Assembly (NCBI GenBank): GCA_044226015.1
Contig: JBGAHS010000003.1
Coordinates: 384,001 to 448,000 of the forward strand
Direction of reading: 5' to 3'
Length of the DNA stretch: 64,000 nucleotides
Source: Candidatus Obscuribacteraceae bacterium
GTDB taxonomy: Bacteria; Cyanobacteriota; Vampirovibrionia; Obscuribacterales; Obscuribacteraceae
In this document: piece after piece, positions 18,706 to 61,149 of the stretch
How positions within the stretch are numbered: the stretch's first letter is position 1
Layout: the number at the start of each line of letters is the position of its first letter
Position numbers and translations under genes: made by a program
The notes under the pieces: model-generated
Database searches by the model: none
The model's input: the letters and a program-made list of their open reading frames with translations, nothing else
What the model was told of the DNA's origin: nothing

Positions 18706-18730
18706 AAGTCTCTCCTCCTCACGTTCGGGG

Positions 18731-19252: not shown

Positions 19253-19274
19253 GAGAGTCTCCTTGTTGTTAGGC

Positions 19275-20285
19275 TCAGAGCCCGAGTAGAGCTATGAGCG
19301 AGAAGGACCAGAGGAAAATCAGCAGGAATCCCGCGACAAGCGGGTACTGGTACAACTCTTGAAAGTTGTTGTAGGACGTGACGCTGACCGGACCGCGTTC
19401 GAGCTGGTCGATTGTCTGAAAGCATTTCTGCATGTCATCAGACTTCTCAACCAGGAAAACGCAATTCTCGCCACCGTCCATGTAATCGCGGGCCAGGCGC
19501 TTGATGTCCACTTCCTTTGTGGCAAGAGTCTGTCCGACGCCCACGACATAGAGCTTGACCTTGTGCTTTTTCAGCAGAACGCTGAGGCGCTGCAAGTGCT
19601 CGTCGCCAAGTTCGTCCTCACCGTCAGTGACGAGGATGAGCACTCGGGCAGGCGATTCTCCGAACTCACGCAGGTGAGCACAGGCCATGTCGATAGGACC
19701 AGGTCCCTTGGCACCGAAATTGGTACCACTTCCCAGCACCTTCTCTCCCAGCAAATTGCTCGGCAGGAAGTCAGTGCGATAGAAGATTTGTTTGAGGTCG
19801 CTGGTCAGCGGCCAGGCAAGCCGTGGGGAATCGTCGAATAGAACCAAACCGATGCGGTCACCGGTTTTCAGCTCGTGCCGATTCTGAGCAAAACTCAAGA
19901 TAGCATCTTGAGCCGCATCAATCCGGCGAGCAGGTTTGTTACCGTTGCGATGCAGCGGCGACTCATAGCCGGGCAGCGTCGCACCCATCGAGCCCGAGTA
20001 GTCTTCCGCGATGACGATGTCTCGCGCCATCACTTGCTCGGTAGACTCGGCTTTGAACACGCGTGGACCAGCGACGGCCACGGCAACGCAGATCAGCGCA
20101 AGGCTAGCCAGCGTCAACGGAAGGTACGGCATGAACAGCACGAGCTGAACCGCCTTATTGTCTTCGTTGAATCCGACGCCTGAGTGCCCCAGGTAGTTCA
20201 CAATGCGCCGCATGCGCAGTCGAACATACCAGAGGGTCGGTACCAGCGCGATGAGCGCCAGCCACCATGGTTGTGCAAAATGCAT
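19275..20285 (-). CDS. VWA-domain membrane protein (BatA/MxaC-like)
   Basis: MHFAQPWWL BatA-type start, DYSGS MIDAS, DRIGLVLF, PLTSD, LVTDGED. Confidence 0.9.
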   Translation of the reverse strand: MHFAQPWWLALIALVPTLWYVRLRMRRIVNYLGHSGVGFNEDNKAVQLVLFMPYLPLTLASLALICVAVAVAGPRVFKAESTEQVMARDIVIAEDYSGSMGATLPGYESPLHRNGNKPARRIDAAQDAILSFAQNRHELKTGDRIGLVLFDDSPRLAWPLTSDLKQIFYRTDFLPSNLLGEKVLGSGTNFGAKGPGPIDMACAHLREFGESPARVLILVTDGEDELGDEHLQRLSVLLKKHKVKLYVVGVGQTLATKEVDIKRLARDYMDGGENCVFLVEKSDDMQKCFQTIDQLERGPVSVTSYNNFQELYQYPLVAGFLLIFLWSFSLIALLGL

Positions 20286-42917: not shown

Positions 42918-42931
42918 CTTCTATTTCTCCA

Positions 42932-44386
42932 CTAAGCTTTGTGCGCCATGCCAACGTCCACACTGCGAAACCTGGCAGGTGGCGCCCCGTGCCCCGTCCA
43001 CATTGTCTGCATCGGTTGACCTTTGCCACAATTTGGCACTCCCCAGTCGACGTAATCGACTGTGCCACCAATGGCAACACAAGAGTTCCAAAACAAAGGT
43101 GTTATGCCTCCATAGCTGCAGTTTTTAAGCAACTTAACACGTCGTCCGTTTTTGATTAACCAGCCAGCTTCAGTGGAGAATTGAAAATTATAACGAAGTT
43201 GATCGATAGACCAACTCCTGTTCGTTTCCATCAAAATTCCTTCATTCGTTTCCGAGACAATATCTTCCAGGCTTCCTGCGCCGCCCGGCAAAAGGGATAT
43301 GTTGGTCATTCGAATAATGGGTGCGAAGTTCCAAGACTCCGCACGCATCATTCCACCAGAGCGACTCAAACCGATTGAGCCTGCGGTGTCTCTCGAGCTT
43401 AGATAGCCTTCGAACATGCCATCTCTCACCAGATAAACATTTTGTGCCTGCACCCCTTCATCATCAAAACCAAAGCTACCCAGAGCACCAGATTTAGTGG
43501 CATCAGCAACAAGGTTTACGATACTAGAACCATACTGCAATCGTCCCAGCTTTTCTGGCGTCAAGAACGAAGCTCCAGCGAAATTGAGTTCTTGCCCCAG
43601 AGCTCGGTCAAGCTCACTCGGGTGCCCCATGCTTTCATGAATTTGCAAAGCCAGCTGAGACGATCCAATAATGAGATCAGTTGTTCCGGCAGGACAAGCA
43701 TCTGCCGAAAGTAAAGCTACAGCCTCTTCGGCAGTCTCTTGCGCGTGCCCCTTAAGGTCCCACTTCTCGATCATTTCCCAGCCTGCAAGTTCGTGCTGCC
43801 CTCCGAAAGATGTCGGGTACGAACGTTTCTGACGGTCAGCCTCATTACTGGCATAAGCTTCGATGCCACAGCTTGAACGAATGAAGCGTTGCTCTATTCT
43901 GCTTCCTTCAGACGAGTAGAACAGCTTTCTTTCCTTGATAAAGGTCATATAACCCTGCGTCAGCGTTATCCCCTTTACCTTCTGCATCAGCCTGGAAGCT
44001 TCAAATAAAACACTTAACTTTGTTTCAATGCTGACGGTGAATGGATCAATCAGATGTGGAGAAACCCAAATAGCATGATATGCCGGTTCATGCGCAAGCT
44101 TCACCGGCGGCTTGACACAAGCTGCACTCGCTTTAGCTACATCAATGGCCTTTCTAACAGCCTTCTCAATTCCTGCTTTCTTCTGCTCTTGCGTAGATGC
44201 AAAACCCCAGCCACCTTTGTAGAGAACGCGAATCCCAAAACCCTGGCTTGAGCTGAGATTCAGCCTCGAAACTTGTTCGTCTTTGGTGGCGATATCCTCG
44301 CTCTGCTGTTCGATGGCTCGAACATCAGCGTATGTTGCACCCAGACTCTTTGCACAATCAAGCGCATAAAGGGCAAGTGACTCCAT
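42932..44386 (-). CDS. tldD: TldD metalloprotease
   Basis: YADVR, HESMGHPSELDR (HExxGHxxE), FDDEG, RMTN, CGKGQP. Confidence 0.92.
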   Translation of the reverse strand: MESLALYALDCAKSLGATYADVRAIEQQSEDIATKDEQVSRLNLSSSQGFGIRVLYKGGWGFASTQEQKKAGIEKAVRKAIDVAKASAACVKPPVKLAHEPAYHAIWVSPHLIDPFTVSIETKLSVLFEASRLMQKVKGITLTQGYMTFIKERKLFYSSEGSRIEQRFIRSSCGIEAYASNEADRQKRSYPTSFGGQHELAGWEMIEKWDLKGHAQETAEEAVALLSADACPAGTTDLIIGSSQLALQIHESMGHPSELDRALGQELNFAGASFLTPEKLGRLQYGSSIVNLVADATKSGALGSFGFDDEGVQAQNVYLVRDGMFEGYLSSRDTAGSIGLSRSGGMMRAESWNFAPIIRMTNISLLPGGAGSLEDIVSETNEGILMETNRSWSIDQLRYNFQFSTEAGWLIKNGRRVKLLKNCSYGGITPLFWNSCVAIGGTVDYVDWGVPNCGKGQPMQTMWTGHGAPPARFRSVDVGMAHKA

Positions 44387-44540: not shown

Positions 44541-45779
44541 TTAATCGACTTTTTCAGACTCGCTATGCAGTGGCACATTACGGAAACTGGCAAAAATCGC
44601 AACATCGTAAAAGGTCTTTAGCCCACCAGCAATCTGAAACGACAGGCTTGCGCACGCGTTGGAAAGAAACCATCCAGACACTAAAGGTGCAGCGCATTGC
44701 CCAAATGAACGTGCAGCAGCTGTCATTCCAGCAACGGCCGTTCTATCTTCCCTGGGCACCAGAACCATTGAGAATGCCTGCCTTGCTGGAATATCCATTG
44801 AAGAAAACAAGGATCTGAGGACAAGAATCATGCCGGCTAAAAACGCATCAGGCATCAGTGGTATCAAACATAGTGCCATGCTGCAAGGCAAATGAGTAAA
44901 CACCATGGTGTTCAAGAGCCCAAAACGCCTGCAAACATAAGGAGAAATAAGGAAAGACACAGCAGCAAGGGCATAAGTCGCCGCAAAAACCTGCCCACTA
45001 AACTCAGGACCCACATGGTACCTTTCGAAAAACCAGAAAGAAATCAGCGTCATCGGAATGAAACCACCAGCAAATGCATCGAGCCCCTGCAGCGAAATGA
45101 GCTTCCAAACAAGCGGAGACCTAATAGCTCTAGACCTCTCAGTACCCGACTCAGAAGATTGGGCACGCAAGGGTCCTAGAATAGAGTAGAGAATTAGGAG
45201 AAGAATTCCACCAAGCGCATACGCGATAAAAATGGATTGATACGCAAACGCAGCAGAGTGCTGATTGCTGAGTAGAGGATAAACAATACCAGCCAGAGAA
45301 GAACCAATTGCAGAGCCAGCAAAGGCGATGAGGTTATATACCGAGAATTCATGTGCAAGCTTTGTCGACTCAGCATTTTCGGAAATCACTGCTTGTTCAA
45401 CAGCTCCAAACGGTCCACCTTCATACCCTGCAGGACTGATGATTCCAAAAACAGCCGCCAACAAGATAGCCCATCGCTCAGTCGCAAATGCAAAAACGGC
45501 ACCCGATGCGCTAAGAACAAGGCTGGCTATCAGCAAAAGATTTCTTAACCCAATTCGATCAGAAAGAACAGACACCAAAGCAGTTAAGACCGCATCTTCG
45601 ATGAGCGTTGCAGACACAATCATGCCGATTTCGAGCGCGCCAAAATTTCGCGAAAGCAAAAACAATGCAAACACAACAGAAACAGACGAGAAGCACAATG
45701 CACGAACGAAACGGGCAACATAGATCAGAACAAGCTTTCGGCTTTGTCCTCCAGGGCTGAACTCTGTCGATTCAATCAC
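44541..45779 (-). CDS. MFS transporter
   Basis: ~12 TMs, SDRIGLR motif A, GPFGAVEQA, SMDIPARQA; starts 2 nt after the GCS2 stop. Confidence 0.9.
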   Translation of the reverse strand: MIESTEFSPGGQSRKLVLIYVARFVRALCFSSVSVVFALFLLSRNFGALEIGMIVSATLIEDAVLTALVSVLSDRIGLRNLLLIASLVLSASGAVFAFATERWAILLAAVFGIISPAGYEGGPFGAVEQAVISENAESTKLAHEFSVYNLIAFAGSAIGSSLAGIVYPLLSNQHSAAFAYQSIFIAYALGGILLLILYSILGPLRAQSSESGTERSRAIRSPLVWKLISLQGLDAFAGGFIPMTLISFWFFERYHVGPEFSGQVFAATYALAAVSFLISPYVCRRFGLLNTMVFTHLPCSMALCLIPLMPDAFLAGMILVLRSLFSSMDIPARQAFSMVLVPREDRTAVAGMTAAARSFGQCAAPLVSGWFLSNACASLSFQIAGGLKTFYDVAIFASFRNVPLHSESEKVD

Positions 45780-45781
45780 CG

Positions 45782-46891
45782 TCAGCCGACTTCTGTGACA
45801 CTCTTACTCAAGACAAGATCTTCCTTTGCAGAGTACAAACCAATCAAATGTGACAGCGTCTTTTCAATGTTTTTTTCCTTTTGGAAAAGGTCGATTAAGT
45901 CATCTGCGGGCAACCTGCGAGAGCGCAGCCTGGACCAGAATTCATCCAGGCACTCGCGAGACAGTCCTAATTTTCGTGCCGTGTGCTCGGCGGCTTCGAG
46001 CACACGAGCTGCGGTTTCGCAAACATGACGAGAATTCAATCCATCTAATGCAATATTGCCCAGGTCGTAAATTCTGGTCTCATCGGTAGCCTGATCTTTC
46101 AGTTCGTCATCAAGCAAAATAGCAAGAGAAAGCAGGAAGAAGGCGTTGTAATCTTCAATACAACGAGACATTTCAAAGCCCTTAAACTCAAAGCGCAACG
46201 AAGGCTTTTCATGCACGTAAAAAAGCGGCGCCCAAATACTTCTTCTATAGGTTCTTATTGATTTGCCGATCTGTCCGCGCCATTTCCACAAACCACCCTC
46301 TGTGAGCGGCGAAGCAAGGGTTAGCGCCACTGCCGCCGGCATGAAGAAATTGATTTTTGCTGCAAGCTCAGATATGTCAATGCGCTTCGAGAGCTCTTCC
46401 GGCAAACTGATATTTATGTCGGGTCCAAAAGTGGTAGCAGCAGTCAAGGCCCATTGCCAGTAATCATGCCTTTTGTAGTTGGGTGCCGCATTGAATTTCG
46501 ATTCAGTAGGATGGTGCGAAATTACCGCAAGGTCAAACCCCTCTTTAAGCACCCGCCGCCTTAAGAGATCAAATAATTTTTGCAACGACACTAATTGCTC
46601 GTCAATGGTATCTGTCATTGGAGTCCGAATTTCTATGCCTTTCGGCAGCAAAGACACCGGATTCATATTTGTATCGGTCAGGTAATAACCTTCCACCAGA
46701 TATGGTGTCGGCTTGCTGTGCAGCGGCTTTATATTGAAACCGCGCTCACTAAACTCGGAGGTATCAATTGAATTGATCAGCCGAGAAAGAAACTCAAAAT
46801 TCAAGTCTTTGTGACCCAGAGGAACGAAACTGTCTTTTCGCACCATCAGAAATTCTGTTTCTATCCCAAACCCGAATCCCGAATTCTGCAT
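45782..46891 (-). CDS. Glutamate-cysteine ligase family 2 (GCS2)-like carboxylate-amine ligase
   Basis: FGIETEF, IEIRTP, GPDINIS, SP..GG, SIR and RFEFK line up with GCS2/YbdK motifs; start ATG 46891. Confidence 0.7.
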   Translation of the reverse strand: MQNSGFGFGIETEFLMVRKDSFVPLGHKDLNFEFLSRLINSIDTSEFSERGFNIKPLHSKPTPYLVEGYYLTDTNMNPVSLLPKGIEIRTPMTDTIDEQLVSLQKLFDLLRRRVLKEGFDLAVISHHPTESKFNAAPNYKRHDYWQWALTAATTFGPDINISLPEELSKRIDISELAAKINFFMPAAVALTLASPLTEGGLWKWRGQIGKSIRTYRRSIWAPLFYVHEKPSLRFEFKGFEMSRCIEDYNAFFLLSLAILLDDELKDQATDETRIYDLGNIALDGLNSRHVCETAARVLEAAEHTARKLGLSRECLDEFWSRLRSRRLPADDLIDLFQKEKNIEKTLSHLIGLYSAKEDLVLSKSVTEVG

Positions 46892-46949
46892 AAAAAACCC
46901 GACACCTTCATTCCTTCTATCTATTTTATAGCTCTTTAGCCTTGCTGCA

Positions 46950-47141
46950 TTAACGCAGGCTGCAATATCCACGAAATCGATACTGAACGAAATCTTCATC
47001 GCCATCGAACTCGCTGACATAGACGTACCCTACACCGATACAAGACAGAGGCAAGATGAAGTGACGCGGCACCTTTTTTGAAATCGAATCAAGAACCAAA
47101 CCGTCAACGGGTCCCCCGAGCAACTCAATCAACATTTGCAT
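46950..47141 (-). CDS. Small GGPxDG-motif hypothetical protein
   Basis: IELLGGPVDG..YRFRG; overlaps the end of the Fur-like gene. Confidence 0.55.
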   Translation of the reverse strand: MQMLIELLGGPVDGLVLDSISKKVPRHFILPLSCIGVGYVYVSEFDGDEDFVQYRFRGYCSLR

Positions 47142-47715
47142 TCTCCCTTACAGCCCAACAATCAGTGCAGACCGAGCGAAGCACTAACTCGATGCGCTGA
47201 AATTCGTAACCCGAGTCTTCGCACAACGCCTTCGCCCTCTCATCAAGATCTTCTTGTTTAAACTCAATTGTTTTATTGCATTGAACGCAAGTCAAAAATC
47301 CTTGCTGGACACCCCTTCGCCATTGGTAGTAAGTTTGGCGCCCCCGCCGAATCGTTTGAATCAAAGCACTTGAGTTCAATCGCTCAAGCACTCTGTAGAT
47401 GGTAGACTTATGCAATTTCTCGCCAAGAGTAGCCAATCTTTCCATGATAGATCGAACTGTCAAAAGCTCACCAGCAGCCTCATTCTCCATGATAGTTGAC
47501 ACAACTCTCAGACACCGAACTTCGCTGCCAATAATGCTGTCATTCTCTTTGAAGCTTGCAATTGCCCTGTAAGCCGAACTCCGTGTCAAATTAACCCCGT
47601 AGTCAGCCATTCTATCCATTAACTCCTGCGCATGCATCCCAGGCTCTTTCTCTAAAATCCTGAAAATAAGCACCTTTCTTTGAAGCCTCTCCGCCCCGCC
47701 TTTTTTACTCTTCAT
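47125..47715 (-). CDS. Fur-family regulator, atypical (duplicated wHTH, no His cluster)
   Basis: LTRSSAYRAI and LHKSTIYRVL helices; CVQC..IEF..CTDC Zn site; HHH position reads QQG. Confidence 0.8.
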   Translation of the reverse strand: MKSKKGGAERLQRKVLIFRILEKEPGMHAQELMDRMADYGVNLTRSSAYRAIASFKENDSIIGSEVRCLRVVSTIMENEAAGELLTVRSIMERLATLGEKLHKSTIYRVLERLNSSALIQTIRRGRQTYYQWRRGVQQGFLTCVQCNKTIEFKQEDLDERAKALCEDSGYEFQRIELVLRSVCTDCWAVRENANVD

Positions 47716-47800
47716 TGATTCCAAAACGCAACCTGCGCCCCCTGCTGTTCGCCACCATTCGTGTGCGAATTAGCCCCCTTCATTGACAAGATCAATACAA

Positions 47801-48181
47801 CTACAAGACCCCTCCCTCACGACACTGCGGTCTACTAGCGCGATTGCATGCGTGCCTTGGACCATTCAAAGCTCGATGCACTCCCGTTACTTCATCAATC
47901 GATTCATGCATTTGCAGCATGTATTCGTTAATGCGCTCAACTTGAATGGCTGACCCCACTTGCTCAGCCTGCATGCGCTTAATCAACAAGCCAGTAATCA
48001 TTCGACCTATACTTCGTATATTCGAGTCGTAAAGTGAGAAGGCGATAGTCAAAACGACATGCTTGGCACTGCCCGTACTTTCATTTATCCTACGCAAACG
48101 CTCTAATGACTCAACAGGCATCTTCTCCAACCATTCGGTAAGACTACTCCTGGTATTCAAATTGTATTCAGAAAAATGCAT
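47801..48181 (-). CDS. Hypothetical protein, first gene of the left arm
   Basis: ATG 48181 with GAGAAAG upstream. Confidence 0.5.
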   Translation of the reverse strand: MHFSEYNLNTRSSLTEWLEKMPVESLERLRRINESTGSAKHVVLTIAFSLYDSNIRSIGRMITGLLIKRMQAEQVGSAIQVERINEYMLQMHESIDEVTGVHRALNGPRHACNRASRPQCREGGVL

Positions 48182-48350
48182 ATGATTATCTTTCTCAACT
48201 ACACTCAAGAAACGCACACCAAAACAAAACACGCGTATCCGCTGCAAACAATTTGCAGAAACAAGATTTGCGGTTTCAAAAAATGCGACTATCAGATTTG
48301 ATAACTGCTTTGGCATTTTTCAGTTTATACAGCTTACTTTACACTAGAAA

Positions 48351-48380
48351 AAATTATTTGAGAACCATTCTCAATAATTT
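48351..48380. promoter_or_regulatory. Fur-box-like palindrome
   Basis: aaattatttgagaa-cca-ttctcaataattt; core TGAGAAC-C-ATTCTCA fits the 7-1-7 TGATAAT-N-ATTATCA pattern. Confidence 0.75.
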
Positions 48381-48492: not shown

Positions 48493-48549
48493 TTGACATG
48501 CCCCTCTCCTCGCCCCTAAACTCCAGAGATTAATTGAGAATGATTGCCA
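48493..48549 (+). promoter_or_regulatory. Sigma70-type promoter followed by a second Fur-box-like site
   Basis: TTGACA(48493)-18 nt-TAAACT(48517); TGAGAAT-G-ATTGCCA at 48535-48549. Confidence 0.65.
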
Positions 48550-48633
48550 TGTCGCAAAATTAGCGACAAGCAAACAAAAAAACCACACAATGCCAGGCGA
48601 GCGCCTACAAATGTTCGAAAAGAGGGGAATTGC

Positions 48634-51312
48634 ATGCACGACCTATCAAAACAGACAGCTGGCGCGATGAGTTCGTCCACGCACACAACGAGAGTTCAAA
48701 CTTATTCAATCGGGCAATTCAGGAACACCGCCGATGAATTAGCCGAAGAGCTCCGCGAACTAGAGTTTCTCTCTGACAGTTATCTCTTCGGATTAAGCAA
48801 CGATACCGGCGAAACCAACTGGCTTTTGTCCAGCCTGGTCAAAGAAGTCAAATTACTGCGCTCTACAATTCGGTCCCGCCTTCACCAGCTTGAGCGAGCA
48901 AGACGCTGGAGCAGCAGCGACGAACTAAAATTGCTCACGCAACAATGTCATTTTGAAATCGGAAATCACAAAGAAGCACTGCGAAAACTATACTCGGCAC
49001 GCGGTAAAGCCTTATGCGCTGGGGACTGGCAAAGTCCAATTTATGCCTCTTCTTACAGTTCAAGCAGAAACAGACAACAAGATGGAATCAGAGAACACAT
49101 TCTAGATTACAAACGAGATGGACACCTCGAAGCAAAGTCTTACGAACAATCCTTTATGAAGGAGTATGCCTCACACCTGGGCTCTAGCTCGATCGAAGCC
49201 TACCTGACCAATAACGGCATGGCCGCTTTCAGTTCCGCTCTTCACTGGATTACACAGGAAGCAAAATTCATGGGGAAGGCACTAGCTGTAGTGCCCATGT
49301 ACTTCGAGAACCTTCATCTAGCAGAGGCATTTATCCCCCAGCTAGAGCAGTTTAACGCGGAGGACAACACCGTCACCCTCTTAGAAAAGCTGCAAAAGGA
49401 AGGTCCTACGATAGTTATTTGCGACACTGTTTCAAATTGCGGAAAAGTTCTGGTTCAGCCTTACAAAGAAATTTTCCAATGGGCAAAAAAAGAAGAGGGA
49501 CGCCCAATCGCGATCGTTCTCGATGCTACTTGTTCTCCTGCATTCTTACTGGAAGACAACTTGCTTCAAGAGCTTCCGGACAGCGTGAGCGTCTTCATCA
49601 TCGAAAGCCTGGCAAAATATCATCAATACGGCATGGACCTAGTAACTGGCGGCATAGCGCTTGTTCATAGCTCAAGCAAAAACCAGGTAAGCTTTAATCG
49701 CACAAGAGCCAGATTCGGTGCAAACATAGTAGATAGCAGCGTCGGCTCTCTGCCTGTTCCTAGCAAATTGGTTCTGGAAAAGCGCCTCAGAAGACACTCT
49801 CGCAACGTCCAATTCTTCAGTGAACAATTGGAAAGAATCATTCAAGTAAAACCCGGACTAATAGAATCAGTCGAGTGGCAATCGCGTGAACTCACCGAAG
49901 AAAACAACTGGTTCAGAAGCTCTTGCCTGACTCTTCGGTTTCGACCTGCGTGCTCATCTATTCAAGCATACAAGGAATTCGAAGAAGAAATTTTGAGATT
50001 AGCCAAACTCAGGAACCAGCCAATCGCCTTGAGCACCAGCTTCGGCTTCGACGTTACTCGATTTTATGTCACTGCACCAGCCTCAGCCTACGAGTCCCCA
50101 TTTCTACGAGTGGCCATCGGCACAGAAAGCCTCTCTCAGATAAAAAAATTGATTTCCCTGGTCGAAGAATGCAGCGCTAAGCTTGCGCTCCAGTGGAAGG
50201 ATCTCAGCGTGGCAGCACCAAAAGCAACCCAGCCAGCTAGCACAAAATTGGAAAACCTTTCAGGGACAAAAGCAGCATTCAAGAACACTGTATACATGGG
50301 CGAAGATGCACTTCACCGTTATCTTTCTCCAGAAAACTTTGCCGTCACGCCACTAGTGGAACTGCCAGCAGACCTCAACCCCTTCAATAATGATGGGGTG
50401 CGCATTCTTGCAAAAATGGTGCCGCTTGTTCCACTAATGAACATCAAATCAATTCCAGCCTTCTCAATGTTACGCAAAGCAGCTCAGAGAGGCGAATTAA
50501 ACGGCGTCAAAAACATCATTGAAAGTTCATCGTCCAATACCGTGCTGTCCTTGAGTGTAATCTCAAAGCTGTTTGGCGTGGACAATACTTGTGCGATCGT
50601 GGACCACTCGATAGCACCAGGACTGGTGCGCATGCTTCGTTTGTTTGGAATCGAAATATATAAACACCCAGCGCCTGGCCATGAACTCTTCGGAAAAACG
50701 GAAGCACGCAGCTTGCGAGCCGCAAATATGGGCAAGCAAGATGGTTGGTACAACCCGAATCAATATGCAAACCCTGACAATCCAGAAGGTTTTGCACGCT
50801 GGCTAGCACCTGAACTATGGGCTCAAACGCAGGGCAAACTGGATGTGTTAAGCTGCGCCTTGGGCACTTGTGGCACCATGGTCGGTGTCAGTCGCGAACT
50901 GCGCAGTCGCAAGCAAGAAATGAGCGTAGTAGCTTGTTGTCCGGCAAGAGGTGAAGCAGTACCCGGACCGCGAGAAAAAATGCTTCTAGGAGATGTTGCA
51001 TTCCCATGGCAAGAAATTGCAGATTCGCGCATGGAAATGGGAGCCGAAGAGAGTTTTGCAGCAAGCATCAAACTCCTCAGAAGAGGAATACTGGGCGGTC
51101 CAAGTTCAGGAATGAACTATGCAGGACTTCTAAAGTACCTTGGCGAATTAAGAGACTCTGGACAGCTTGAAGAAGCCATCACAAAGCAAGGTACACTTAA
51201 CGCTGTCTTCCTCTGCTGTGACTCACCACTTCCGCACATCGACGAGTACTTCGATGCGCTGGGCGAAAAATACTTTCCAGACGTCCATGAAGTTCCCGAG
51301 CTTAGCAAATAA
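48634..51312 (+). CDS. Fused PLP enzyme: Cys/Met-metabolism (fold I) domain + cysteine synthase/CBS-like (fold II) domain
   Basis: N half: YKRDG, NGMAA, DTVSN, LDAT, ESLAKY, LRVAIG. C half: TPLVEL, NIKSIPA, IESSSSNT, NQYANPDN, LGTCGT, GPSSG. GAGGGG RBS. Confidence 0.85.
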   Translation: MHDLSKQTAGAMSSSTHTTRVQTYSIGQFRNTADELAEELRELEFLSDSYLFGLSNDTGETNWLLSSLVKEVKLLRSTIRSRLHQLERARRWSSSDELKLLTQQCHFEIGNHKEALRKLYSARGKALCAGDWQSPIYASSYSSSRNRQQDGIREHILDYKRDGHLEAKSYEQSFMKEYASHLGSSSIEAYLTNNGMAAFSSALHWITQEAKFMGKALAVVPMYFENLHLAEAFIPQLEQFNAEDNTVTLLEKLQKEGPTIVICDTVSNCGKVLVQPYKEIFQWAKKEEGRPIAIVLDATCSPAFLLEDNLLQELPDSVSVFIIESLAKYHQYGMDLVTGGIALVHSSSKNQVSFNRTRARFGANIVDSSVGSLPVPSKLVLEKRLRRHSRNVQFFSEQLERIIQVKPGLIESVEWQSRELTEENNWFRSSCLTLRFRPACSSIQAYKEFEEEILRLAKLRNQPIALSTSFGFDVTRFYVTAPASAYESPFLRVAIGTESLSQIKKLISLVEECSAKLALQWKDLSVAAPKATQPASTKLENLSGTKAAFKNTVYMGEDALHRYLSPENFAVTPLVELPADLNPFNNDGVRILAKMVPLVPLMNIKSIPAFSMLRKAAQRGELNGVKNIIESSSSNTVLSLSVISKLFGVDNTCAIVDHSIAPGLVRMLRLFGIEIYKHPAPGHELFGKTEARSLRAANMGKQDGWYNPNQYANPDNPEGFARWLAPELWAQTQGKLDVLSCALGTCGTMVGVSRELRSRKQEMSVVACCPARGEAVPGPREKMLLGDVAFPWQEIADSRMEMGAEESFAASIKLLRRGILGGPSSGMNYAGLLKYLGELRDSGQLEEAITKQGTLNAVFLCCDSPLPHIDEYFDALGEKYFPDVHEVPELSK

Positions 51313-52748
51313 TGAATGTGAAAACGAAAGTGTCCTTCAAAGCAACTAGTCCCCCAAAAACAGACTGCGCACCAATTCTCGAAGCAAAGACGGCCGATTG
51401 GATGCGCGCCCTGCTTGAAGAAAAGCAGCTGATCAAAAAATGGGTCAGCGAATTCGGCTCACCGCTCCACGTCGTTGTGAAAGACGAATTCTATAAAAAT
51501 GTGGATTGCTTGTTAAAACCACTACAAGAGCGAACCATTGAAGGAAACCTCTTTTTTGCTCGTAAAGCAAACAAGCTAAGCTTCTTTGTGGAAACGGCAA
51601 AGCAAGCTGGCATCGGCGTGGATACAGCCAGCATTACGGAGCTCAAGGAGACAATTCAGCTCGGACTGCATCCGGAGAAAATAATTCTGACAGCAATTGG
51701 CAAAGACGAAACCCTCCTCAGAACCGCCATGGATCATGATTGCCTCATAATTATTGAAAATGAAGATGAGCTCGCTCTGGTAAAACAACTCGCAGCTTCC
51801 CAAAGCAAAGCAATCAAGATCGGATTGCGCTTCGCCGGATTTGAAATAGATGAACGCCTCATTTACAGCCGCTTTGGACTCAACTTTAAAGAACACCGCG
51901 CGATCATAGATGGAATTAGCAATAGCAATCTAAATATCAAATTGCTCCATGCACACATAGATAGGTATGACACCACAGAACGAGCAATGGCAGCTCGACA
52001 GCTTATCATCGCTAGCAGGCACGCCAAAAGCCTGGGGCACGAATGCGACGCTATAGACCTTGGCGGTGGCATTTTGATGCGCTATCTCGAACATGAAGAA
52101 CACTGGATCAACTTTCAGAACGAACTCATAGCGGCAGTAAAAGGCGAGAGAAAACCGTTTACCTTCAAGGGCGACGGACTGGGCTACTTTCTGGCAGCAG
52201 GAAAACTCGCAGGACATGCCGATTTCTACCCTGCCTGGAACTCGCTCTACAAAGAGAATTTCATAGCAGCAATTCTAGATCACAAGCACAAAAACAGCCT
52301 ACTTCACGAAGAGATAAAGGCAGCAAAGTTACGCCTATATTTCGAGCCGGGACGCGCGCTTCTGGATAATTGTGGTATCACATTTGCCAATGTTGCATTT
52401 AGAAAGAAGGACACTCTAAATCAAAAGCTCATCGGACTGAGAATGAATCGTATGAACCTTCGTCCCTTCAGAGCAGAGTTTTGCAGCGACCCAGTCATCC
52501 TTTGCTTCGGCGCAAGGGAAAAGGCGCAAGAAGGCGCCTATCTTGTGGGCTGTTTGTGCTCCGAGAGCGATACGATATTCCGACGGAAATTCTTTTTCGA
52601 CGAAGTGCCCGAACCCGGCGACATCTTCGCGTTTATCAACAGCGCAGGCTACCTTGCCCACCACATGGAAATCGGGACGCACGGTGACGCTGTTCCAACA
52701 AACATTCTGATCGAGCCCGGAAGCTGGATGATTCAAGGACAAGCATAA
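51312..52748 (+). CDS. Y4yA-type fold-III PLP decarboxylase (DAP/ornithine decarboxylase-like)
   Basis: FGSPL, FFARKANK, DTAS..E, SRFG, HAH, DLGGG, FEPGRAL, GCLCSESD, NSAGY; TAATG coupling. Confidence 0.85.
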   Translation: MNVKTKVSFKATSPPKTDCAPILEAKTADWMRALLEEKQLIKKWVSEFGSPLHVVVKDEFYKNVDCLLKPLQERTIEGNLFFARKANKLSFFVETAKQAGIGVDTASITELKETIQLGLHPEKIILTAIGKDETLLRTAMDHDCLIIIENEDELALVKQLAASQSKAIKIGLRFAGFEIDERLIYSRFGLNFKEHRAIIDGISNSNLNIKLLHAHIDRYDTTERAMAARQLIIASRHAKSLGHECDAIDLGGGILMRYLEHEEHWINFQNELIAAVKGERKPFTFKGDGLGYFLAAGKLAGHADFYPAWNSLYKENFIAAILDHKHKNSLLHEEIKAAKLRLYFEPGRALLDNCGITFANVAFRKKDTLNQKLIGLRMNRMNLRPFRAEFCSDPVILCFGAREKAQEGAYLVGCLCSESDTIFRRKFFFDEVPEPGDIFAFINSAGYLAHHMEIGTHGDAVPTNILIEPGSWMIQGQA

Positions 52749-53479
52749 TGAGCACTGAATCAACACAGACACAGCAGAGCTGCAATAAAGTTGCGCTAGT
52801 AACAGGAGCAGGACAAGGAATAGGACGAGCCCTTACCGAAGCGCTAGCGCAGAGAAATTACATCGTACTTGCCCTTGTTCGCAGCTTGAAGGATCTTGAC
52901 GAGCTGGCTCAAATCCCGATGGTGCAAGCAGTCTGCTCTGATGTCACCGAAGACTCCAGCGAGAGAATATTGCGCGAATTCGCCGAAAGCAAAGTAGACA
53001 AAATCGATTTACTCATCAATAACGCTGGATATGGGGCATCTGCCTATGGCATCGAAGGACTAAAGCTTGAAGAACTAAATCGAGTGCTGGCGGTGCATTG
53101 CCACGGACCGATTCGCTGCATAAAAGCCTGCCTGCCACTACTCAGACGCTCAAACGATGCAGCAATCCTAAACATATCATCACGCTTTGCCTCAATTGAA
53201 TGGGTTGCAAGAAAGATGGTGCCGCCAGAGCAGGCTACCTACGCCTATCGCATTGCCAAAGCAGCGATGAACATGCTCAGCGCCTGCCTTGCCGTCGAGC
53301 TGGAGGGCAGCAATATCCGCGTCTTAGCAATAGACCCAGGCAAAGTGAAGACACGATTCGGACCTGTGGATGCTGACACTGAAGCAGCAGAGGCAGCTTT
53401 ATCAATTCTGCAACTTGCAGAAACAAGAAAAGAAACAGGAAAATTCATACACGCATCAGGAGAAGAATTGCCATGGTAG
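52748..53479 (+). CDS. Short-chain dehydrogenase/reductase (CsgA-like)
   Basis: TGAGQGIG, NNAG, NISS, YRIAK, DPGKVKT; TAATG coupling. Confidence 0.9.
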   Translation: MSTESTQTQQSCNKVALVTGAGQGIGRALTEALAQRNYIVLALVRSLKDLDELAQIPMVQAVCSDVTEDSSERILREFAESKVDKIDLLINNAGYGASAYGIEGLKLEELNRVLAVHCHGPIRCIKACLPLLRRSNDAAILNISSRFASIEWVARKMVPPEQATYAYRIAKAAMNMLSACLAVELEGSNIRVLAIDPGKVKTRFGPVDADTEAAEAALSILQLAETRKETGKFIHASGEELPW

Positions 53480-54606
53480 ATCGTCATTGGGCAGTCAAAG
53501 ACAGAAATGAGCCCTTCGTTGTTCCATCATTTGAAACGATAAGCTTTTCAATGCCATCCATGACAAATTGGGAGTCGCTTCTCAAAGGCGAACAAGATGG
53601 CTGGGTTTATCTCAGCGATGGGAATCCGACCCTTGCCGCACTAGAAAATTTGCTTGCTCGCATTCAAGGAACAGAAGCCTGCTGGGTAACCAGCACAGGA
53701 AAATCGGCTATCGCTGCGGCTTTACTGGCGCTGCTTAAAGCAGGCGATCACTTCATTCTTCTTCGAGAAGGCTATAAGTCAACTCGCCTCTTTGCTGAGG
53801 GAATACTCAAGAAGTACGGGGTCGAGCTCAGCCTCATCGAAGTCGACCAACTAAATGAGCTGCAAAGGTTTATCAAGCCGAATACAAAAGCGTTGGTTCT
53901 CGAAGCGCCCACAAATCCTATGACCCGCGTTCCAGACCTATTTGAATGCTGCAAGATTGCCAGAGACGCAGAAGTAATTACATTGCTAGACAACTCACTT
54001 GCTGGATTTCATCAACATGGAAATGTTCCAGTTGACGTAATACTTCACAGCCTTTCAAAATTTGCCTCGGGCGTGGGCGATGTAATGGGAGGCGCAGTTC
54101 TCGGCACGAAGGACATAGTGAAGCAGATCAAAAATGCCAACGTCTGGAATACTGACGCATTGAGCAGCCACTCAGCAGTTGAACTCTGGAAAGGCATGCA
54201 AACATACGATCTCCGCATCCAGCGCCAATCTTCAAACGCACTGGCAATAGCCAGGTTTCTTGAGAAACACCCCAATGTAGAAAGAGTACTCTACCCCGGA
54301 CTTGAAAGCCATCCAGACCACGGAATCGCAAAGAGGCAAATGAAAGACTTTGGCTCTGTGCTAGCGTTTGACACTAAGACACCAGAAAAAATGAGAGAAG
54401 CATTGGATAAAATGTCCGTCTTCCGCATCGCATTTGGAACCGGCTTCACCCAATCAATAGCAAACCCCGCCTGGCTATTTTATGCGCGGTCCTTCCCCGA
54501 ACCTCAAACCGGACCATCAGCGATTACAGACTGCACCATCAGACTATCTGTAGGAATAGAGGAACCCTCTCTGCTGATTTCGGATCTCGAAGCTGCGCTG
54601 GCATAG
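53473..54606 (+). CDS. Cystathionine gamma-synthase/lyase-family PLP enzyme
   Basis: GNPT, EAPTNP, DNS, HSLSKF, YPGLESHP, IRLSVGIE. Confidence 0.9.
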   Translation: MVDRHWAVKDRNEPFVVPSFETISFSMPSMTNWESLLKGEQDGWVYLSDGNPTLAALENLLARIQGTEACWVTSTGKSAIAAALLALLKAGDHFILLREGYKSTRLFAEGILKKYGVELSLIEVDQLNELQRFIKPNTKALVLEAPTNPMTRVPDLFECCKIARDAEVITLLDNSLAGFHQHGNVPVDVILHSLSKFASGVGDVMGGAVLGTKDIVKQIKNANVWNTDALSSHSAVELWKGMQTYDLRIQRQSSNALAIARFLEKHPNVERVLYPGLESHPDHGIAKRQMKDFGSVLAFDTKTPEKMREALDKMSVFRIAFGTGFTQSIANPAWLFYARSFPEPQTGPSAITDCTIRLSVGIEEPSLLISDLEAALA

Positions 54607-54625: not shown

Positions 54626-55852
54626 ATGACTGAGCACCTTTCCGGCAACGATATCGACTCAGAAATTATCATCCTCGGCGCAGGAATAGCAGGCATCACT
54701 TGTGGTATCACCATGCAATGCCTGGGTTTTAGAACTGCAATTGTGTCCGAGAAGTTCCCCCTTTTGGAAGAACACGATAATTCTGACAAAGAGATTGCTA
54801 CGATCTATGCAATGGCATCGGCATATCCTCACTTCCTCAAGATTGAGAATCTGGAAAGAGTCAGCGACGATTCACAAGCCATTCTCTGCGAATTATTCAC
54901 TACAAAAGACTCAGGCATAGAGAAGCAGCGGATTTTCGAAGTCTTTGAATTTGAGCCGCCCTCCAACGCGGCAGCACTGTCTGATCGTCGAATGCGCTTC
55001 ATGAGTTTCGACGGCAAATCAGAACAGCTAAAAAAAACAATCGATCCGCCCGCACGAGGACAGGCGAACCAACTCTGGGGCTGGAGCTTCGAATCATATT
55101 TTGCAGACATGCCAGCATACGTTCGATATCTATGGGCATTCTACCGGGAGTTGGGTGGCAAGAGCATTCGCGCAAAAGTTCACACCCTGAAAGAGCTTGA
55201 ATCGCTGAGCAACCGCATCTTCATCAACTGCTGCGGACTTGGCGCCATAGCGTTGTGCACTGATGAATCGGAAGCTATAGTTCTGCGCGGAAAGCAAGTT
55301 TTGATTAACGAGCCAGGAATCTTCGACAAAGACGGCTTGCGCCTGGCTTACAACTACACACCTACTGCCGACGTTTTTTCTCGAGCCGATGGCACCCCAG
55401 AATATGTACATTTCTTCTCTCGCTCAAACGAGTGGCTGCTCGGGCAAACAAGAGAACGAGGAAAGCTGATAGATGGCAGATGGCAGGGCATGATTTCCGG
55501 CAAAAGCGAACTGACAGTTGATGGCGTAATGATTCCACAGGAAATACTGCAGCTAAACGAGGACATCTTGAACAATTGGAAGCAAAGAACATTTTCAAAA
55601 ATCGGAATGAAAGCGCGTGAAGCTTATCGATATTACAGAGACCCAGAAAACAGTGGAGTCCGATTAGAGAAGGAGGATCTTGGAGCTAACAGAATCTTTC
55701 ACAATTATGGGCTCGCAGGCTCAGGTGTAACCATGTCCTGGGGGTGCGCTATAGAATGCGCTCACATGGCGCTTGATTCAAGCAATCCTGGACAAATCAA
55801 TAATCAGAGCAGCTTAGCTAACAAAATTCGATCTCGAATCGCTGCTAGCTAG
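54626..55852 (+). CDS. D-amino acid oxidase-like FAD oxidoreductase
   Basis: LGAGIAG, INCCGLGA, RGK, HNYGLAGSGVTMSWGCA. Confidence 0.85.
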   Translation: MTEHLSGNDIDSEIIILGAGIAGITCGITMQCLGFRTAIVSEKFPLLEEHDNSDKEIATIYAMASAYPHFLKIENLERVSDDSQAILCELFTTKDSGIEKQRIFEVFEFEPPSNAAALSDRRMRFMSFDGKSEQLKKTIDPPARGQANQLWGWSFESYFADMPAYVRYLWAFYRELGGKSIRAKVHTLKELESLSNRIFINCCGLGAIALCTDESEAIVLRGKQVLINEPGIFDKDGLRLAYNYTPTADVFSRADGTPEYVHFFSRSNEWLLGQTRERGKLIDGRWQGMISGKSELTVDGVMIPQEILQLNEDILNNWKQRTFSKIGMKAREAYRYYRDPENSGVRLEKEDLGANRIFHNYGLAGSGVTMSWGCAIECAHMALDSSNPGQINNQSSLANKIRSRIAAS

Positions 55853-57143
55853 CCCCAGATTCGTCATGAGCAGCCAGCACCGATGCTCTAAACTTGCAAG
55901 CTAGCGGAATCAGCATCAGCGAGATGGACGGCGCCAGACTTGCTAAAACCACCAGACTTTTGTAGTCCTCATGAACTACGTTTTGGAAAAGCTGACCGCC
56001 AACAAAAGTGGCTGATGATGTGGCGATGTTTCTCACCGCAACCAGCCAGGCCATCACTGACACTTCAATGCGACGCGGACAAACGTCAGCTGCAAAACCG
56101 TAAAGAGAAAGTATCGCTGTAAGGTTGGCAAAACCATGAAAGAACTCCAGAAAAGAAGCAGACGCCGGCGTGGAAATCATGCGAAAAGAGATTGTACTCA
56201 CAATCACTAGCACTGTAGTTGCAATCAATTGTCCTTTCAAACTCAAGAAGCGAAGAAGAAGCGGATACGCAAAAGACGCCAATAACATTCCGGCGGAGTT
56301 CCAGGCGGCCAACTGCCCTATTGCACTCTGCGAAAAGCCTAATGTTTTGCTCTCGTAAAAATAAAGCGGCACACCGAATGATGGCAAAAAGCTCCACAGA
56401 AACGAGAATATGACCACAAGCCATAGTGCAGGCGAGCGAAGCCCATCCTTCAACGAACGCATGGTATCGCCCATGGCGGCACGATTCAAAAAGGACCTTT
56501 CCTCAAAAACCAATTTAAAAGTAAGAAAAGAAATTAGCAAGAGAGGTGCAACCGCAAGCAGAGCAGCAATGTGAAGCGCCCCCAATGGCGTCAAATTTTG
56601 ACAAAGGATACCTCCAAAAATGACCGCCGCGATATTAGCACTGTAGTATGCAATTTCCTGAATTATGAACAGAGTTCTGGCATTTGTACCTGCTCGTCCC
56701 TCTTCCACTGCCAACCCAACCATTAAAACAGTAGCCACAGCCATACTCAGAGCAGTTAGCATCAAACACACAAGAATTAGGCTTAGCGAATTTGCGCAAA
56801 ACATCACAAGAAATGCCAAAGCAGCAAAAGCATTTGCAAAGATAAGATAGCTCTTGCGACGATATCCAAATAAAGGAACGAAGTCAGAAAGCAGCCCATA
56901 GAAGGGCTTAAGCATCCACGGCAACATTAGCAATGACATATTGGCTGATATTTGCGCCGCATCAAAGCCCAGTCCGCGCATCATGAAAAACTGTATGGGC
57001 TGGGCAATTACACCAAACTGAGCGCAAGAGATTCCCTGAGAAAGATAGGCCAACAGGAAATAGATTCCAATCTTGTTTAACGTATCGCGGGAATCAGGAG
57101 ATTCCGAATTTCGCGAATGAGTGTCGCCTTTAATCATAGTCAC
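55845..57143 (-). CDS. BT1 (folate-biopterin)-type MFS transporter
   Basis: PWMLKPFYGLLSDFVPLFGYRRKSY signature; ~12 TMs. Confidence 0.85.
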   Translation of the reverse strand: MTMIKGDTHSRNSESPDSRDTLNKIGIYFLLAYLSQGISCAQFGVIAQPIQFFMMRGLGFDAAQISANMSLLMLPWMLKPFYGLLSDFVPLFGYRRKSYLIFANAFAALAFLVMFCANSLSLILVCLMLTALSMAVATVLMVGLAVEEGRAGTNARTLFIIQEIAYYSANIAAVIFGGILCQNLTPLGALHIAALLAVAPLLLISFLTFKLVFEERSFLNRAAMGDTMRSLKDGLRSPALWLVVIFSFLWSFLPSFGVPLYFYESKTLGFSQSAIGQLAAWNSAGMLLASFAYPLLLRFLSLKGQLIATTVLVIVSTISFRMISTPASASFLEFFHGFANLTAILSLYGFAADVCPRRIEVSVMAWLVAVRNIATSSATFVGGQLFQNVVHEDYKSLVVLASLAPSISLMLIPLACKFRASVLAAHDESGAS

Positions 57144-57644: not shown

Positions 57645-58607
57645 ATGAGCGAACGAAACGTTCTCATCATCGGCTCGGGCGTCAGCGGACTCAGCGTGGC
57701 ACACAAACTGCTTCTTGCTGGGCATCGAGTGCAGATCTGGACCAAAGACGCAGCTGACAGCTCACCAACCACTTCCGCTTCGGCCTACGGCATGTGGGTT
57801 CCAGTGAAGATCGACGCCGACCCCAGAGTCGAACGTTGGGCGCAGGAAACCTACGCCGAGCTGGTCGGACTGGCAGCAAGGGGGAAGGCGGGCGTTACGC
57901 TGCGTAAGATCTACCAGCTCAAGGGTGAGCACAGTGAGCCCTGGTATGCGTCCAGCGTTCCCGGTGTCCGCCATGCCACCTCCGGCGAAATCAGCGCTGA
58001 CTACGCTGACGCTCATGTCATCGAGGCTGCTCCCATCGTTGACCCCGAGACCTACCTGAGCTACCTGCGCGGCGAAATTCGTCTGCTCGGCGGCAGCATC
58101 GTGACTCGCACCGTGACTGACCTGTCTGAGTGCGCCGACTTCGATGCCGTCGTCAACTGTAGCGGTCTCGGTGCAAGGCGGCTCTGCAACGACAGCTCGC
58201 TCTTCCCCGAGCGAGTGCAGGTCGTTCGCATCAAGCCCAACGGCTTCCAGCATGTCGTCGTGGACGACGAAGGTCCGCACAAGCGCGCCTGCATCGTGCC
58301 ACACAGCGACTACATTCAGCTCGGCGCCGTCTTCGACACGGGCAGCGAGTCGCTTGATGTCGACGCGACACTGACGGCTGACATCATCTCACGCTGCAAG
58401 CGCATGGTCCCCGGGTTCAAGGTCGACCCTGAGGACATCATCAGCGTCCACCGCGCCCTTCGCCCGGAACGCCCGCTCACCCGGGTGGAACTGGAACGCA
58501 AGGACGAAGGTCCCCACATCATCCACAACTACGGTCATGATGGCATGGGCTACCTGCTGTCCTGTGGCATTGCCAACGAAATCGCTGGCTACGTGGGCGC
58601 GCTCTAA
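57645..58607 (+). CDS. D-amino acid oxidase
   Basis: IIGSGVSG, VNCSGLGA, ALRPER, HNYGHDGMG; GGAG RBS. Confidence 0.88.
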   Translation: MSERNVLIIGSGVSGLSVAHKLLLAGHRVQIWTKDAADSSPTTSASAYGMWVPVKIDADPRVERWAQETYAELVGLAARGKAGVTLRKIYQLKGEHSEPWYASSVPGVRHATSGEISADYADAHVIEAAPIVDPETYLSYLRGEIRLLGGSIVTRTVTDLSECADFDAVVNCSGLGARRLCNDSSLFPERVQVVRIKPNGFQHVVVDDEGPHKRACIVPHSDYIQLGAVFDTGSESLDVDATLTADIISRCKRMVPGFKVDPEDIISVHRALRPERPLTRVELERKDEGPHIIHNYGHDGMGYLLSCGIANEIAGYVGAL

Positions 58608-58757
58608 ACGGCAAGTTGCGGACGAGAGCAAGTGCTCTCGTCCGTCTTAGCTGTTGTTTCTAGCGAGCTATCGCTTTTACTTCGGCTGAGAAGCCGTTTT
58701 CACAGCGTCCTGCGGCAAAAACGTGGGACCTTTTCGAACCTCATGAGGTATTTCATC

Positions 58758-60432: not shown

Positions 60433-61149
60433 ATGACTTACGCACTCCTGTCACAGCTTGTGACGAATGTGACGGCAGAGTTGGACACAATCAAGAAAAG
60501 CAGGAAGGCACTGGAAATTGCCGTCATGCGAGTCCAACCGCTTCTCAATAAGTACATCACCGAAGGTCACACCAAGTCTGACACTGAATTCAAGGTCTGC
60601 ACCCTCGGTCCTAGCTGCTGCAAGCGCGGCGGCATCGAGCTTCTGGCAGACATGAAGAAGATGGCAGAAGAGCAGCCCGAAGCTCGAGTAGTCGAGTCGG
60701 AATGCCTGCGTCGCTGCGGACGCGGTCCCAACGTCGAAGTCGGCGGCATCGTCTACACCCAGATGAATGCCGAGCGCGCCCGCGAACTCTTCGAGTCGCA
60801 ACTGAAGAAGCAAGCACTCAACGTCGACCTGCTGGTCAACGACGAGTTCGCTGCCGAGTCAGTAAACTGCGAGGAGAAGCGCTGCCGACTCGACCTCGAA
60901 ATCGGCAAAGCCAAGTCTACCCTGGCATCGCTTGGAGCCCAGATTCAGGCACTCGACGCCAACCTTTCGCATGAACCGCAACAGAAGGTGCTCGACCAGG
61001 TTTTGCTCATTCTGGCGATGAAATCGCATAGCGCGCTTCGTCCAGAAATCGAGGAAGCCGAACAGCTTCTGAAGCAGGTTCTGCCTCTCAACGCCTTCGT
61101 CGAGCGCATCTACGCACTCGAAAAGAATGAATGGGAGAAAAGACGCTGA
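60433..61149 (+). CDS. Thioredoxin-like [2Fe-2S] ferredoxin domain embedded in coiled-coil
   Basis: VCTLGPSCCKRGG..ECLRRCGRGPNV; helical flanks; AGGAGG RBS. Confidence 0.75.
   Translation: MTYALLSQLVTNVTAELDTIKKSRKALEIAVMRVQPLLNKYITEGHTKSDTEFKVCTLGPSCCKRGGIELLADMKKMAEEQPEARVVESECLRRCGRGPNVEVGGIVYTQMNAERARELFESQLKKQALNVDLLVNDEFAAESVNCEEKRCRLDLEIGKAKSTLASLGAQIQALDANLSHEPQQKVLDQVLLILAMKSHSALRPEIEEAEQLLKQVLPLNAFVERIYALEKNEWEKRR

Follow-up and report, generated by a model that had tools for sequence, protein, structure and literature searches.

The 64,000-nucleotide (nt) stretch of DNA analysed here (the window) covers positions 384,001 to 448,000 of contig JBGAHS010000003.1 in an assembly (GCA_044226015.1) of a Candidatus Obscuribacteraceae bacterium, and its central element is a gene for a fusion of two pyridoxal 5'-phosphate (PLP) enzymes (48634..51312, + strand). 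The gene is a single stop-free frame of 892 amino acids (aa) with a GAGGGG ribosome site upstream of its ATG; an alternative start at TTG 48544 was rejected, as it sits within the operator described below, while the ATG has the ribosome site. From the N-terminus, the protein comprises a three-helix extension (residues 26-131; 48709..49026, +), which forms part of a predicted dimer interface, an arm with WQSP and Tyr159-x-Arg161 (49027..49125, +), a fold-I domain of the Cys/Met-metabolism (gamma) family with K328 (49126..50199, +), a flexible, variable linker (50200..50289, +) and a fold-II PALP domain of the aspergillomarasmine A (AMA) synthase clade with K605 and R780 (50290..51285, +). Both Schiff-base lysines, noticed as intact in an earlier note on this DNA, were confirmed, K328 in ESLAKY (codon 49615-49617) and K605 in NIKSIPA (codon 50446-50448), and an ESSSSNT loop is also present. 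K605 is conserved in 79/79 fusions and K328 in 73 of the 78 that cover that position.

A homologue search returned 81 proteins, i.e., the query, 78 other fusions (a few of them truncated) and two proteins consisting of the fold-II half only; several of these proteins are labelled Candidatus Obscuribacterales. The fusion was present in 20/96 other genomes of the same family and in 0/204 genomes from ten other families of the class, and a family-wide search found it, patchily, in 23/104 genomes. An assembly artefact, which the earlier note had proposed to check across the linker, was rejected in view of the 78 other fusions and of contigs from two runs that cross the linker: one, 17.3 kb long and from run X1, which may be the source sample, covers it; the other comes from a different study (run X3, <90% alike) and has 82 bases in place of 85 there, which leaves the frame intact. 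Elsewhere the genome carries an ordinary adjacent pair of cystathionine beta-synthase (CBS) and cystathionine gamma-synthase/gamma-lyase (CGS/CGL) genes, both above their cut-offs (543 vs. 510 and 559.5 vs. 513 bits), and the fusion is therefore not a plain CBS/CGL protein. Hence the suggestion of an unusual fusion holds: this is a genuine, non-housekeeping two-enzyme protein conserved in one bacterial family, and plain CBS/CGL activity, which the note had named among its counter-cases, is rejected.

No adjacent split form of the two halves was found in other phyla. Two loci with stand-alone homologues of the N-half have unrelated neighbours, and their genomes gave no match of the AMA synthase type; both halves occurred together in 0/301 genomes of the phylum of these stand-alone proteins and one half in five, in a search at E 1e-35 that was insensitive. 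Each of the two stand-alone genes (L001:7704-9242 and L002:7734-9299) lies head-to-head with a gene for an AstE/AspA-like deacylase, and their genomes (1.6-1.7 Mb), labelled Gammaproteobacteria, are Patescibacteria-like in size and gene content. A description of the fusion or of its cluster was not found in the literature searched, where no search was worded for a CBS/CGL fusion, so that absence from print is not established.

In the C-half, Pfam detected the PALP domain (residues 571-842), its only hit on the fusion, and no rhodanese domain (PF00581). The NCBIfam scores of this half were far below the cut-offs for CysK/CysM (TIGR01136, 110.9 vs. 344.15 bits), SbnA (TIGR03945, 110 vs. 349.95) and CBS (TIGR01137, 76.2 vs. 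510.25). The substrate loop was read correctly in the earlier note as SSSSNT, and SSSNT rather than TSGNT occurs in 71/79 fusions, but the proposed closeness to SbnA-like enzymes did not survive, the SbnA score being equal to that of CysK/CysM and the nearest solved protein being AMA synthetase. The entries of the latter, 8H4Q/8H4H, are the best solved match (E 1.7e-67; the next family, CysK/CysM, E 3.3e-22) and take Foldseek ranks 1-4. The enzyme from Aspergillus oryzae aligns with the C-half at 36% identity with a root-mean-square deviation of 2.5 Å over 337 columns, and both share an N-terminal insert, the Arg of PGPR and a CCD motif; the fungal protein differs in having a C-terminal rhodanese, no fold-I partner, a two-gene cluster and an SSGST loop in place of SSSNT.

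A quick tree was computed from 108 rows, among them 14 of the 79 fusions, with P0080 and P0167 standing in for 8H4Q and with P0082-P0094 and short matches left out. In this tree, which has long outgroup branches, the fused fold-II domains nested within a 95-row clade (SH-aLRT 99) that includes two fungal proteins and is separate from the CBS of the genome. In the alignment, R780 falls on the PGPR Arg of 8H4Q; this Arg occurs in 78/78 fusions and 79/80 stand-alone members of the clade, while the genome's own CBS lacks the Arg of this PG-x-R motif. By analogy with CysM, R780 would bind the phosphate of O-phospho-L-serine (OPS). Among 107 relatives of the C-half found in shorter proteins, many are fused to rhodanese, and some are labelled Patescibacteria, archaea or fungi; short proteins that match the C-half at 58-72% identity are possibly fragments or products of gene fission. 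The C-half is thus an enzyme of the AMA synthase clade, with AMA synthetase as its nearest solved relative.

The assignment of the N-half to fold I is based on structure, profile and homologues and not on a Pfam hit: PF01053 was not detected on the fusion at E 0.01, although three stand-alone relatives reached 30, 62.8 and 70.7 bits against a cut-off of 27, and none of the three stand-alone relatives tested reached an NCBIfam cut-off. In this form the pairing of a fold-I with a fold-II enzyme, recognized in the earlier note, is upheld. In the model, the three long helices (26-131) lead into an arm predicted with low confidence (132-163) and then into the fold-I core, and the N-half folded alone gave a predicted TM-score (pTM) of 0.86. 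The top 11 rows of the structure comparison (VIA Z 27.3-29.3) all belong to the trans-sulfuration gamma family, and other fold-I families stayed at or below 22.7; the gamma-substitution enzyme CndF, with Z 27.7, ties with CGL, CGS and O-acetylhomoserine sulfhydrylase (27-29). Gamma-substitution is described for CGS, CndF, Fub7, AnkD and Mur24 (bioRxiv 2023.03.21.533663). These enzymes belong to the same fold-I gamma family, yet their identity to the N-half is 13-18%, neither the three-helix extension nor the fusion was seen in these matches, and a reaction cannot be assigned from the likeness.

The residues of the PLP site (Tyr-x-Arg arm, Gly-Met, stacking Tyr, Asn, Asp, Ser, Lys, Ser and Arg), mapped by motif with PMC10053738 as a guide, are each present in 71-77 of 75-79 fusions, and Tyr159-x-Arg161 is invariant in 75/75. 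In TgCGL, the arm residues Y78 and R80 hold the phosphate of the PLP in the complementary monomer, and E359 is reported to be specific for CGL (PMC10053738); by the same reasoning, the arm of the fusion presumably completes the site of the neighbouring subunit. The Glu position of CGL, which holds the cysteinyl end (E359 in TgCGL), corresponds to Thr468 in the fusion when mapped by motif rather than from a printed alignment. A profile search with the N-half retrieved 901 clusters at E 0.001 and 327 at E 1e-30, and the best 150 clusters are mostly stand-alone proteins of ~500 aa, with Lys and Arg kept in 137/137 of those of at least 430 aa. The ~120-aa helical extension singled out in the earlier note does exist, but is not special to the fusion, since these stand-alone relatives carry an N-terminal extension of similar length. 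The N-half is, consequently, a member of a large uncharacterised gamma-family fold-I group with a full active site, whose reaction is not readable from its sequence.

The fold-I active site appears to have been split naturally in a minority of the fusions. Five of the 79 (P0066, P0067, P0068, P0071 and P0072) no longer have the lysine, the stacking Tyr and further residues of the site but retain the YKRDGH arm, and in genome G298 such a dead fusion is accompanied, two genes downstream, by a stand-alone copy in which the lysine is present and the arm absent. The arm motif is wholly lost in 3/137 stand-alone proteins (two more differ at the Arg only), and these arm-less clusters pair with dead-fused clusters on equal-sized contigs in 3/3 cases (168,242 + 18,716; 1,995,985; 40,869, accessions two apart). 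The link between the two kinds of copies is therefore indirect, through contig sizes, except in G298. When a quick tree was built from 49 rows of the sequence that follows the arm, dead copies and arm-less copies each formed one clade (SH-aLRT 95), and the split is accordingly regarded as one event. The predicted complex of the dead-fused and arm-less proteins of G298 scored 0.85 against 0.00 for the best control, the mark for this score being reached by 116/157 solved complexes and 2/215 mismatched pairs; at least 87% of contacts are common to the runs, the predicted local distance difference test (pLDDT) of the partner is at least 82, and the arm contacts the partner's Ser-Gly-Met loop and residues next to its lysine. 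Since the dead fused domain kept the arm while the separate copy kept the lysine, both the fold-I activity and its attachment to the fold-II domain look selected, both being apparently needed. Such a pairing would represent a clean natural case of active-site complementation.

The fusion gene heads a conserved operon whose enzymes all look soluble. The start of a fold-III PLP decarboxylase gene (51312..52748, +; PF02784), which we take to be Y4yA-like, overlaps the fusion stop; next come a short-chain dehydrogenase/reductase (SDR; 52748..53479, +; PF00106), an atypical MetB-like fold-I enzyme (53473..54606, +), a first D-amino-acid/D-aspartate-oxidase-like flavoenzyme (54626..55852, +), a BT1-family transporter of the major facilitator superfamily (MFS; 55845..57143, -; PF03092) and a second flavoenzyme (57645..58607, +), both flavoenzymes being assigned by homology and matching D-aspartate and D-amino-acid oxidases best. 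Further downstream lies a possible accessory protein with a thioredoxin-like 2Fe-2S ferredoxin domain (60433..61149, +; PF01257, weak), similar domains being encoded near the cluster in three relatives. Divergently oriented upstream are a small conserved protein of unassigned family (47801..48316, -), for which no Atlas match was found and whose true start is probably later, because its relatives are ~119 aa long, and an accessory Fur-family regulator (47125..47724, -; PF01475, 64.9 bits). Across 21 loci (the window and 20 relatives, several ended by contig edges), the decarboxylase was counted in 20, the SDR and the MetB-like gene in 18 each, the oxidase-like genes in 17, BT1 in 11, a MOSC gene in nine, the small protein in seven, and Fur-like and flavodoxin genes in five each. 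The cognate decarboxylase and the MetB-like gene were each found in 22/23 genomes with the fusion (the missing decarboxylase falling at a contig edge) and in 0/81 others. No ligase or non-ribosomal peptide synthetase (NRPS) is among the conserved neighbours, and an IucA/IucC synthetase was found in 0/104 family genomes, positive controls being detected.

The lysine and the terminal Arg are still present in the MetB-like protein, which is unusually well conserved (69-77%), but its arm (Arg to Ser/Thr), Gly-Met (to Gly-Lys) and substrate-loop motifs are changed. A racemase precedent exists among its relatives, as it matches PDB 9iz5, and the Tln1/Tln5 system offers another (bioRxiv 2025.10.30.685158); by analogy, one might guess that the MetB-like enzyme is a racemase. 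In G298 (85% complete) both the MetB-like and the oxidase-1 genes are missing from the cluster, which contains a peroxiredoxin-like gene; replacement of the two by an aminotransferase was considered and not relied on, as G304 has both genes plus a similar aminotransferase nearby. A MetB-like match within a 986-aa open frame, adjoining a second MetB-like gene, lies elsewhere in G298 (C49:478131-479135) and is possibly another fusion.

Flavodoxin, PepSY-associated transmembrane (TM) and ferredoxin genes neighbour the fusion loci and are consistent with iron limitation. A PepSY-associated TM gene is divergent from the fusion in G304 (L126:13021-14389) and has its own box of the type described below; proteins of this kind are known as iron-regulated components of siderophore uptake or reduction. 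Less conserved surroundings of the window include a Dyp-type peroxidase directly 3' of oxidase 2 (58632-60368, +), not conserved in relatives, which could clear oxidase peroxide, a GCS2-like carboxylate-amine ligase with an MFS gene after the Fur-like gene (44541-47020, -), seen in none of the 20 related loci, and an ordinary-looking TldD/PmbA (TldE) metalloprotease pair followed by a Nudix hydrolase (41568-44386, -). A second, commoner cluster of the family, not found in the genome under study, is built around a distant fold-III paralogue (27-33% identity; in ~75/104 genomes); in G224 and G286 (L049:3912-8029, 15691-19799; L050:10055-15000) it comprises PALP-rhodanese, SufS-like class-V enzyme, GNAT and Fur genes, with CopA and ZIP transporter genes nearby.

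When the upstream regions were aligned, TTGACA proved to be conserved, and a 7-1-7 palindrome appeared up to three times, with a spacing of ~89 nt. In the window, the first copy (48356..48376; 27.0 bits) is the top site of the genome, and another (48532..48552; 13.9 bits) lies just 3' of the -10 box of a sigma-70-like promoter (48493..48522, +; TTGACA, 18 nt, TAAACT; TTGAC conserved in relatives), a position typical of repressor sites; in 14/20 loci the last copy follows TTGAC(A/G) by 38-42 nt. Consensus sites, the consensus having been picked by eye, number 37 in 12,081 upstream nt of relatives vs. 6 in 42,631 coding nt, and a matrix was built from these 37 sites with the window excluded. By this matrix a box of at least 12 bits occurs upstream in 20/20 loci, which is circular for the 19 training loci though not for the window, the 99th percentile of random windows being 11.5 bits. 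Sites of 14.1-22.5 bits precede feoB in 8/10 genomes (the own genome, 3/4 with the cluster and 4/5 without it), and the box precedes 0/5 COG0523 loci (best 4.6 bits); it also stands upstream of relocated BT1 (in several relatives) and oxidase-2 genes. The tentative identification of the motif as a Fur-type box is based on its likeness to known Fur boxes and on its position before feoB. The cluster thus carries a palindrome shared with feoB and is predicted to be under iron-Fur control; neither the operon nor this control was noticed in the earlier note.

A genome-wide regulon derived from the matrix was mostly uninformative. Among its other sites, a box precedes a Flp/Tad pilin operon in two genomes (L075:3468, i.e., G000 C9:379967 in the genome under study, 23 bits; L106:1500 in G178), which suggests that Tad pili are under iron control. 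A locus of zinc type (L093:2046-6000 onward; G000 C12:49045-55569) encodes TonB, a plug-domain receptor-like protein, two Fur/Zur proteins, a COG0523 GTPase and an L33-like protein and has a TGAAA-type box.

Considering that this iron-controlled cluster contains an AMA-type enzyme, a second PLP domain of replacement type, a decarboxylase, redox enzymes and a transporter and no ligase, we tentatively propose, as a reading that falls a little short of an even chance, that the fusion forms the bonds at the core of a pathway which, under iron starvation, assembles a small aminopolycarboxylate metal chelator via PLP replacement reactions. The fold-II half would eliminate phosphate from OPS and add the amine of an amino acid in a C-N-forming beta-replacement, by homology with AMA synthase, Fda4 and Tln5; the fungal AMA synthase and Fda4 do form C-N bonds from OPS (PMC12751119). 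The fold-I half, its site completed by the Tyr-x-Arg arm of the neighbouring subunit, would use an activated homoserine for a gamma-replacement that attaches a 3-amino-3-carboxypropyl arm to this same scaffold amine, as its fold and family chemistry suggest. More speculatively, the fold-III enzyme might decarboxylate the diaminopropionate unit, the MetB-like enzyme might racemise the amino-acid end, an oxidase might convert this end to a keto acid, the SDR might reduce the latter to an alpha-hydroxy acid, and BT1 might transport the product. An alpha-hydroxy acid occurs in plant mugineic acids.

Several facts weigh against this proposal. With respect to regulation, one feoB lacked the box in each set of relatives (with and without the cluster), the matrix gave 15.2 bits at a zinc-type locus (TonB, two Fur/Zur genes, COG0523), metal-related genes follow only 3/20 other regions taken from the top 70 sites, and a search of the genome (92% complete) for a TonB-receptor barrel (PF00593) found none. 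As for the enzymes, the fusion loop SSSNT departs from the SSGST of AMA synthase, the rhodanese domain in many clade members hints at sulfur chemistry, and no characterised bacterial member of the family of either half was found in the literature searched. All 23 genomes with the fusion are kin, so that the co-occurrence of the genes is not independent evidence, and the pass of the G298 complex may reflect no more than its likeness to solved CGL dimers.

Pathways that the cluster resembles include, besides AMA synthase, the Fda4/Fda3 module of Fusarium poae for L-2,3-diaminopropionate (L-Dap), in which a PALP enzyme condenses OPS with an amino acid beside a flavin adenine dinucleotide (FAD) oxidoreductase and an MFS transporter; it differs in feeding an NRPS, in the rhodanese fusion and in having no decarboxylase, SDR or gamma-family enzymes, the comparison being one of description and not of sequence (PMC12751119). 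Tln1/Tln5 of Micromonospora echinospora, likewise compared by description and not by sequence, combine a PLP racemase with an OPS beta-replacement enzyme, but as separate proteins in a polyketide-alkaloid cluster (bioRxiv 2025.10.30.685158). AMA itself is a chelator that inhibits metallo-beta-lactamases, as three papers report (PMC10853765, PMC11672702, PMC9533460), and C-N-forming PLP enzymes of this type are wanted as biocatalysts. The fusion scores below the SbnA cut-off, as given above, and the cluster has no SbnB (ornithine-cyclodeaminase-like), IucA/IucC or fumarate-adding lyase. In these respects it departs from SbnA/SbnB/SbnH (staphyloferrin B) and AesA-C (ethylenediaminedisuccinic acid, EDDS), metal-regulated chelator pathways with which it shares OPS beta-replacement and a fold-III decarboxylase. 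Nicotianamine, mugineic acid and staphylopine are aminopolycarboxylate chelators with aminocarboxypropyl arms and a final oxidation or reduction step. Pathways of this type use an S-adenosylmethionine-dependent nicotianamine synthase, and no such synthase is among the conserved neighbours here. By analogy, the cluster would operate in the manner of the pathways for AMA, EDDS and nicotianamine, yet is a member of none by the tests applied.

Other readings of the same genes are less probable. It appears unlikely that C-S bonds are made or broken by the two halves (lanthionine- or cystathionine-like thioethers, or release of sulfide) as part of an iron-regulated route to a thioether metabolite or for sulfur salvage. 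Thiols are native substrates of both folds, rhodanese is fused to many clade members, and in the paralogous cluster of the family a PALP-rhodanese protein occurs together with a SufS-like enzyme, but the fusion itself is free of rhodanese, the conserved cluster has no sulfur carrier, the Glu position of CGL is Thr (T468, as mapped by motif), and D-amino-acid oxidases together with an SDR fit poorly. We find it improbable, too, that the cluster supplies Dap or a diamine to a Fur-controlled pathway elsewhere, with the fold-II half making an OPS-amino-acid conjugate from which a flavin oxidase frees L-Dap, in the manner of Fda4/Fda3 or SbnA/SbnB, and the decarboxylase then yielding the diamine. 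Fda4 with an FAD oxidoreductase does lead to L-Dap (PMC12751119, where the Fda3 step is not shown in vitro), Tln1/Tln5 (bioRxiv 2025.10.30.685158) provide the precedent of a racemase with beta-replacement, and two oxidase genes and a decarboxylase gene are within the cluster; such a route, however, gives no role to the tethered fold-I domain or to the SDR and finds no conserved ligase, NRPS or IucA/IucC to take the Dap.

The earlier note had envisaged channelled beta-replacement followed by elimination in the fold-I half, giving a non-standard amino acid. Its product remains likely, by way of the beta-replacement; elimination is common for CGL-type folds, both sites are intact, and the tether persists even where the fused fold-I site is dead. 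Nevertheless, elimination in this protein is unsupported, gamma-replacement being at least as likely, and it would reverse the bond just formed unless the scissile bond differs. Channelling finds no footing in a linker that spans 45-132 residues among the 79 fusions or in the full-length model (pTM 0.59, linker pLDDT <50), where the inter-domain pose is not fixed, and the scheme as a whole is quite improbable. A plain reverse trans-sulfuration fusion, with which the fold classes and the automatic JGI labels agree, was rejected as barely credible, as the TIGR01137 score of 76 bits lies far below the required 510, the genome already has its adjacent CBS and CGS/CGL pair above the cut-offs, and the fusion is patchy (23/104) and placed in a dedicated operon.

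To return to the chelator proposal, known bacterial iron chelators arise mostly by NRPS, IucA/IucC or nicotianamine synthase routes, and genome-mining tools target those; a cluster that has none of these routes and yet carries an iron-uptake operator therefore points to a class that mining would miss. That it represents a new class of siderophore pathway, in which one polypeptide with beta- and gamma-replacement activities builds a phytosiderophore-like aminopolycarboxylate with no NRPS, IucA/IucC or nicotianamine synthase, is a more far-reaching claim, and we consider it doubtful, though worth stating. If true, it would give the first reaction for the large uncharacterised gamma-family group (327 clusters at E 1e-30) and an example from nature of a single PLP active site divided over two subunits, one tethered but dead and the other free and catalytic, in a cluster of a lineage whose homologues are labelled Obscuribacterales.

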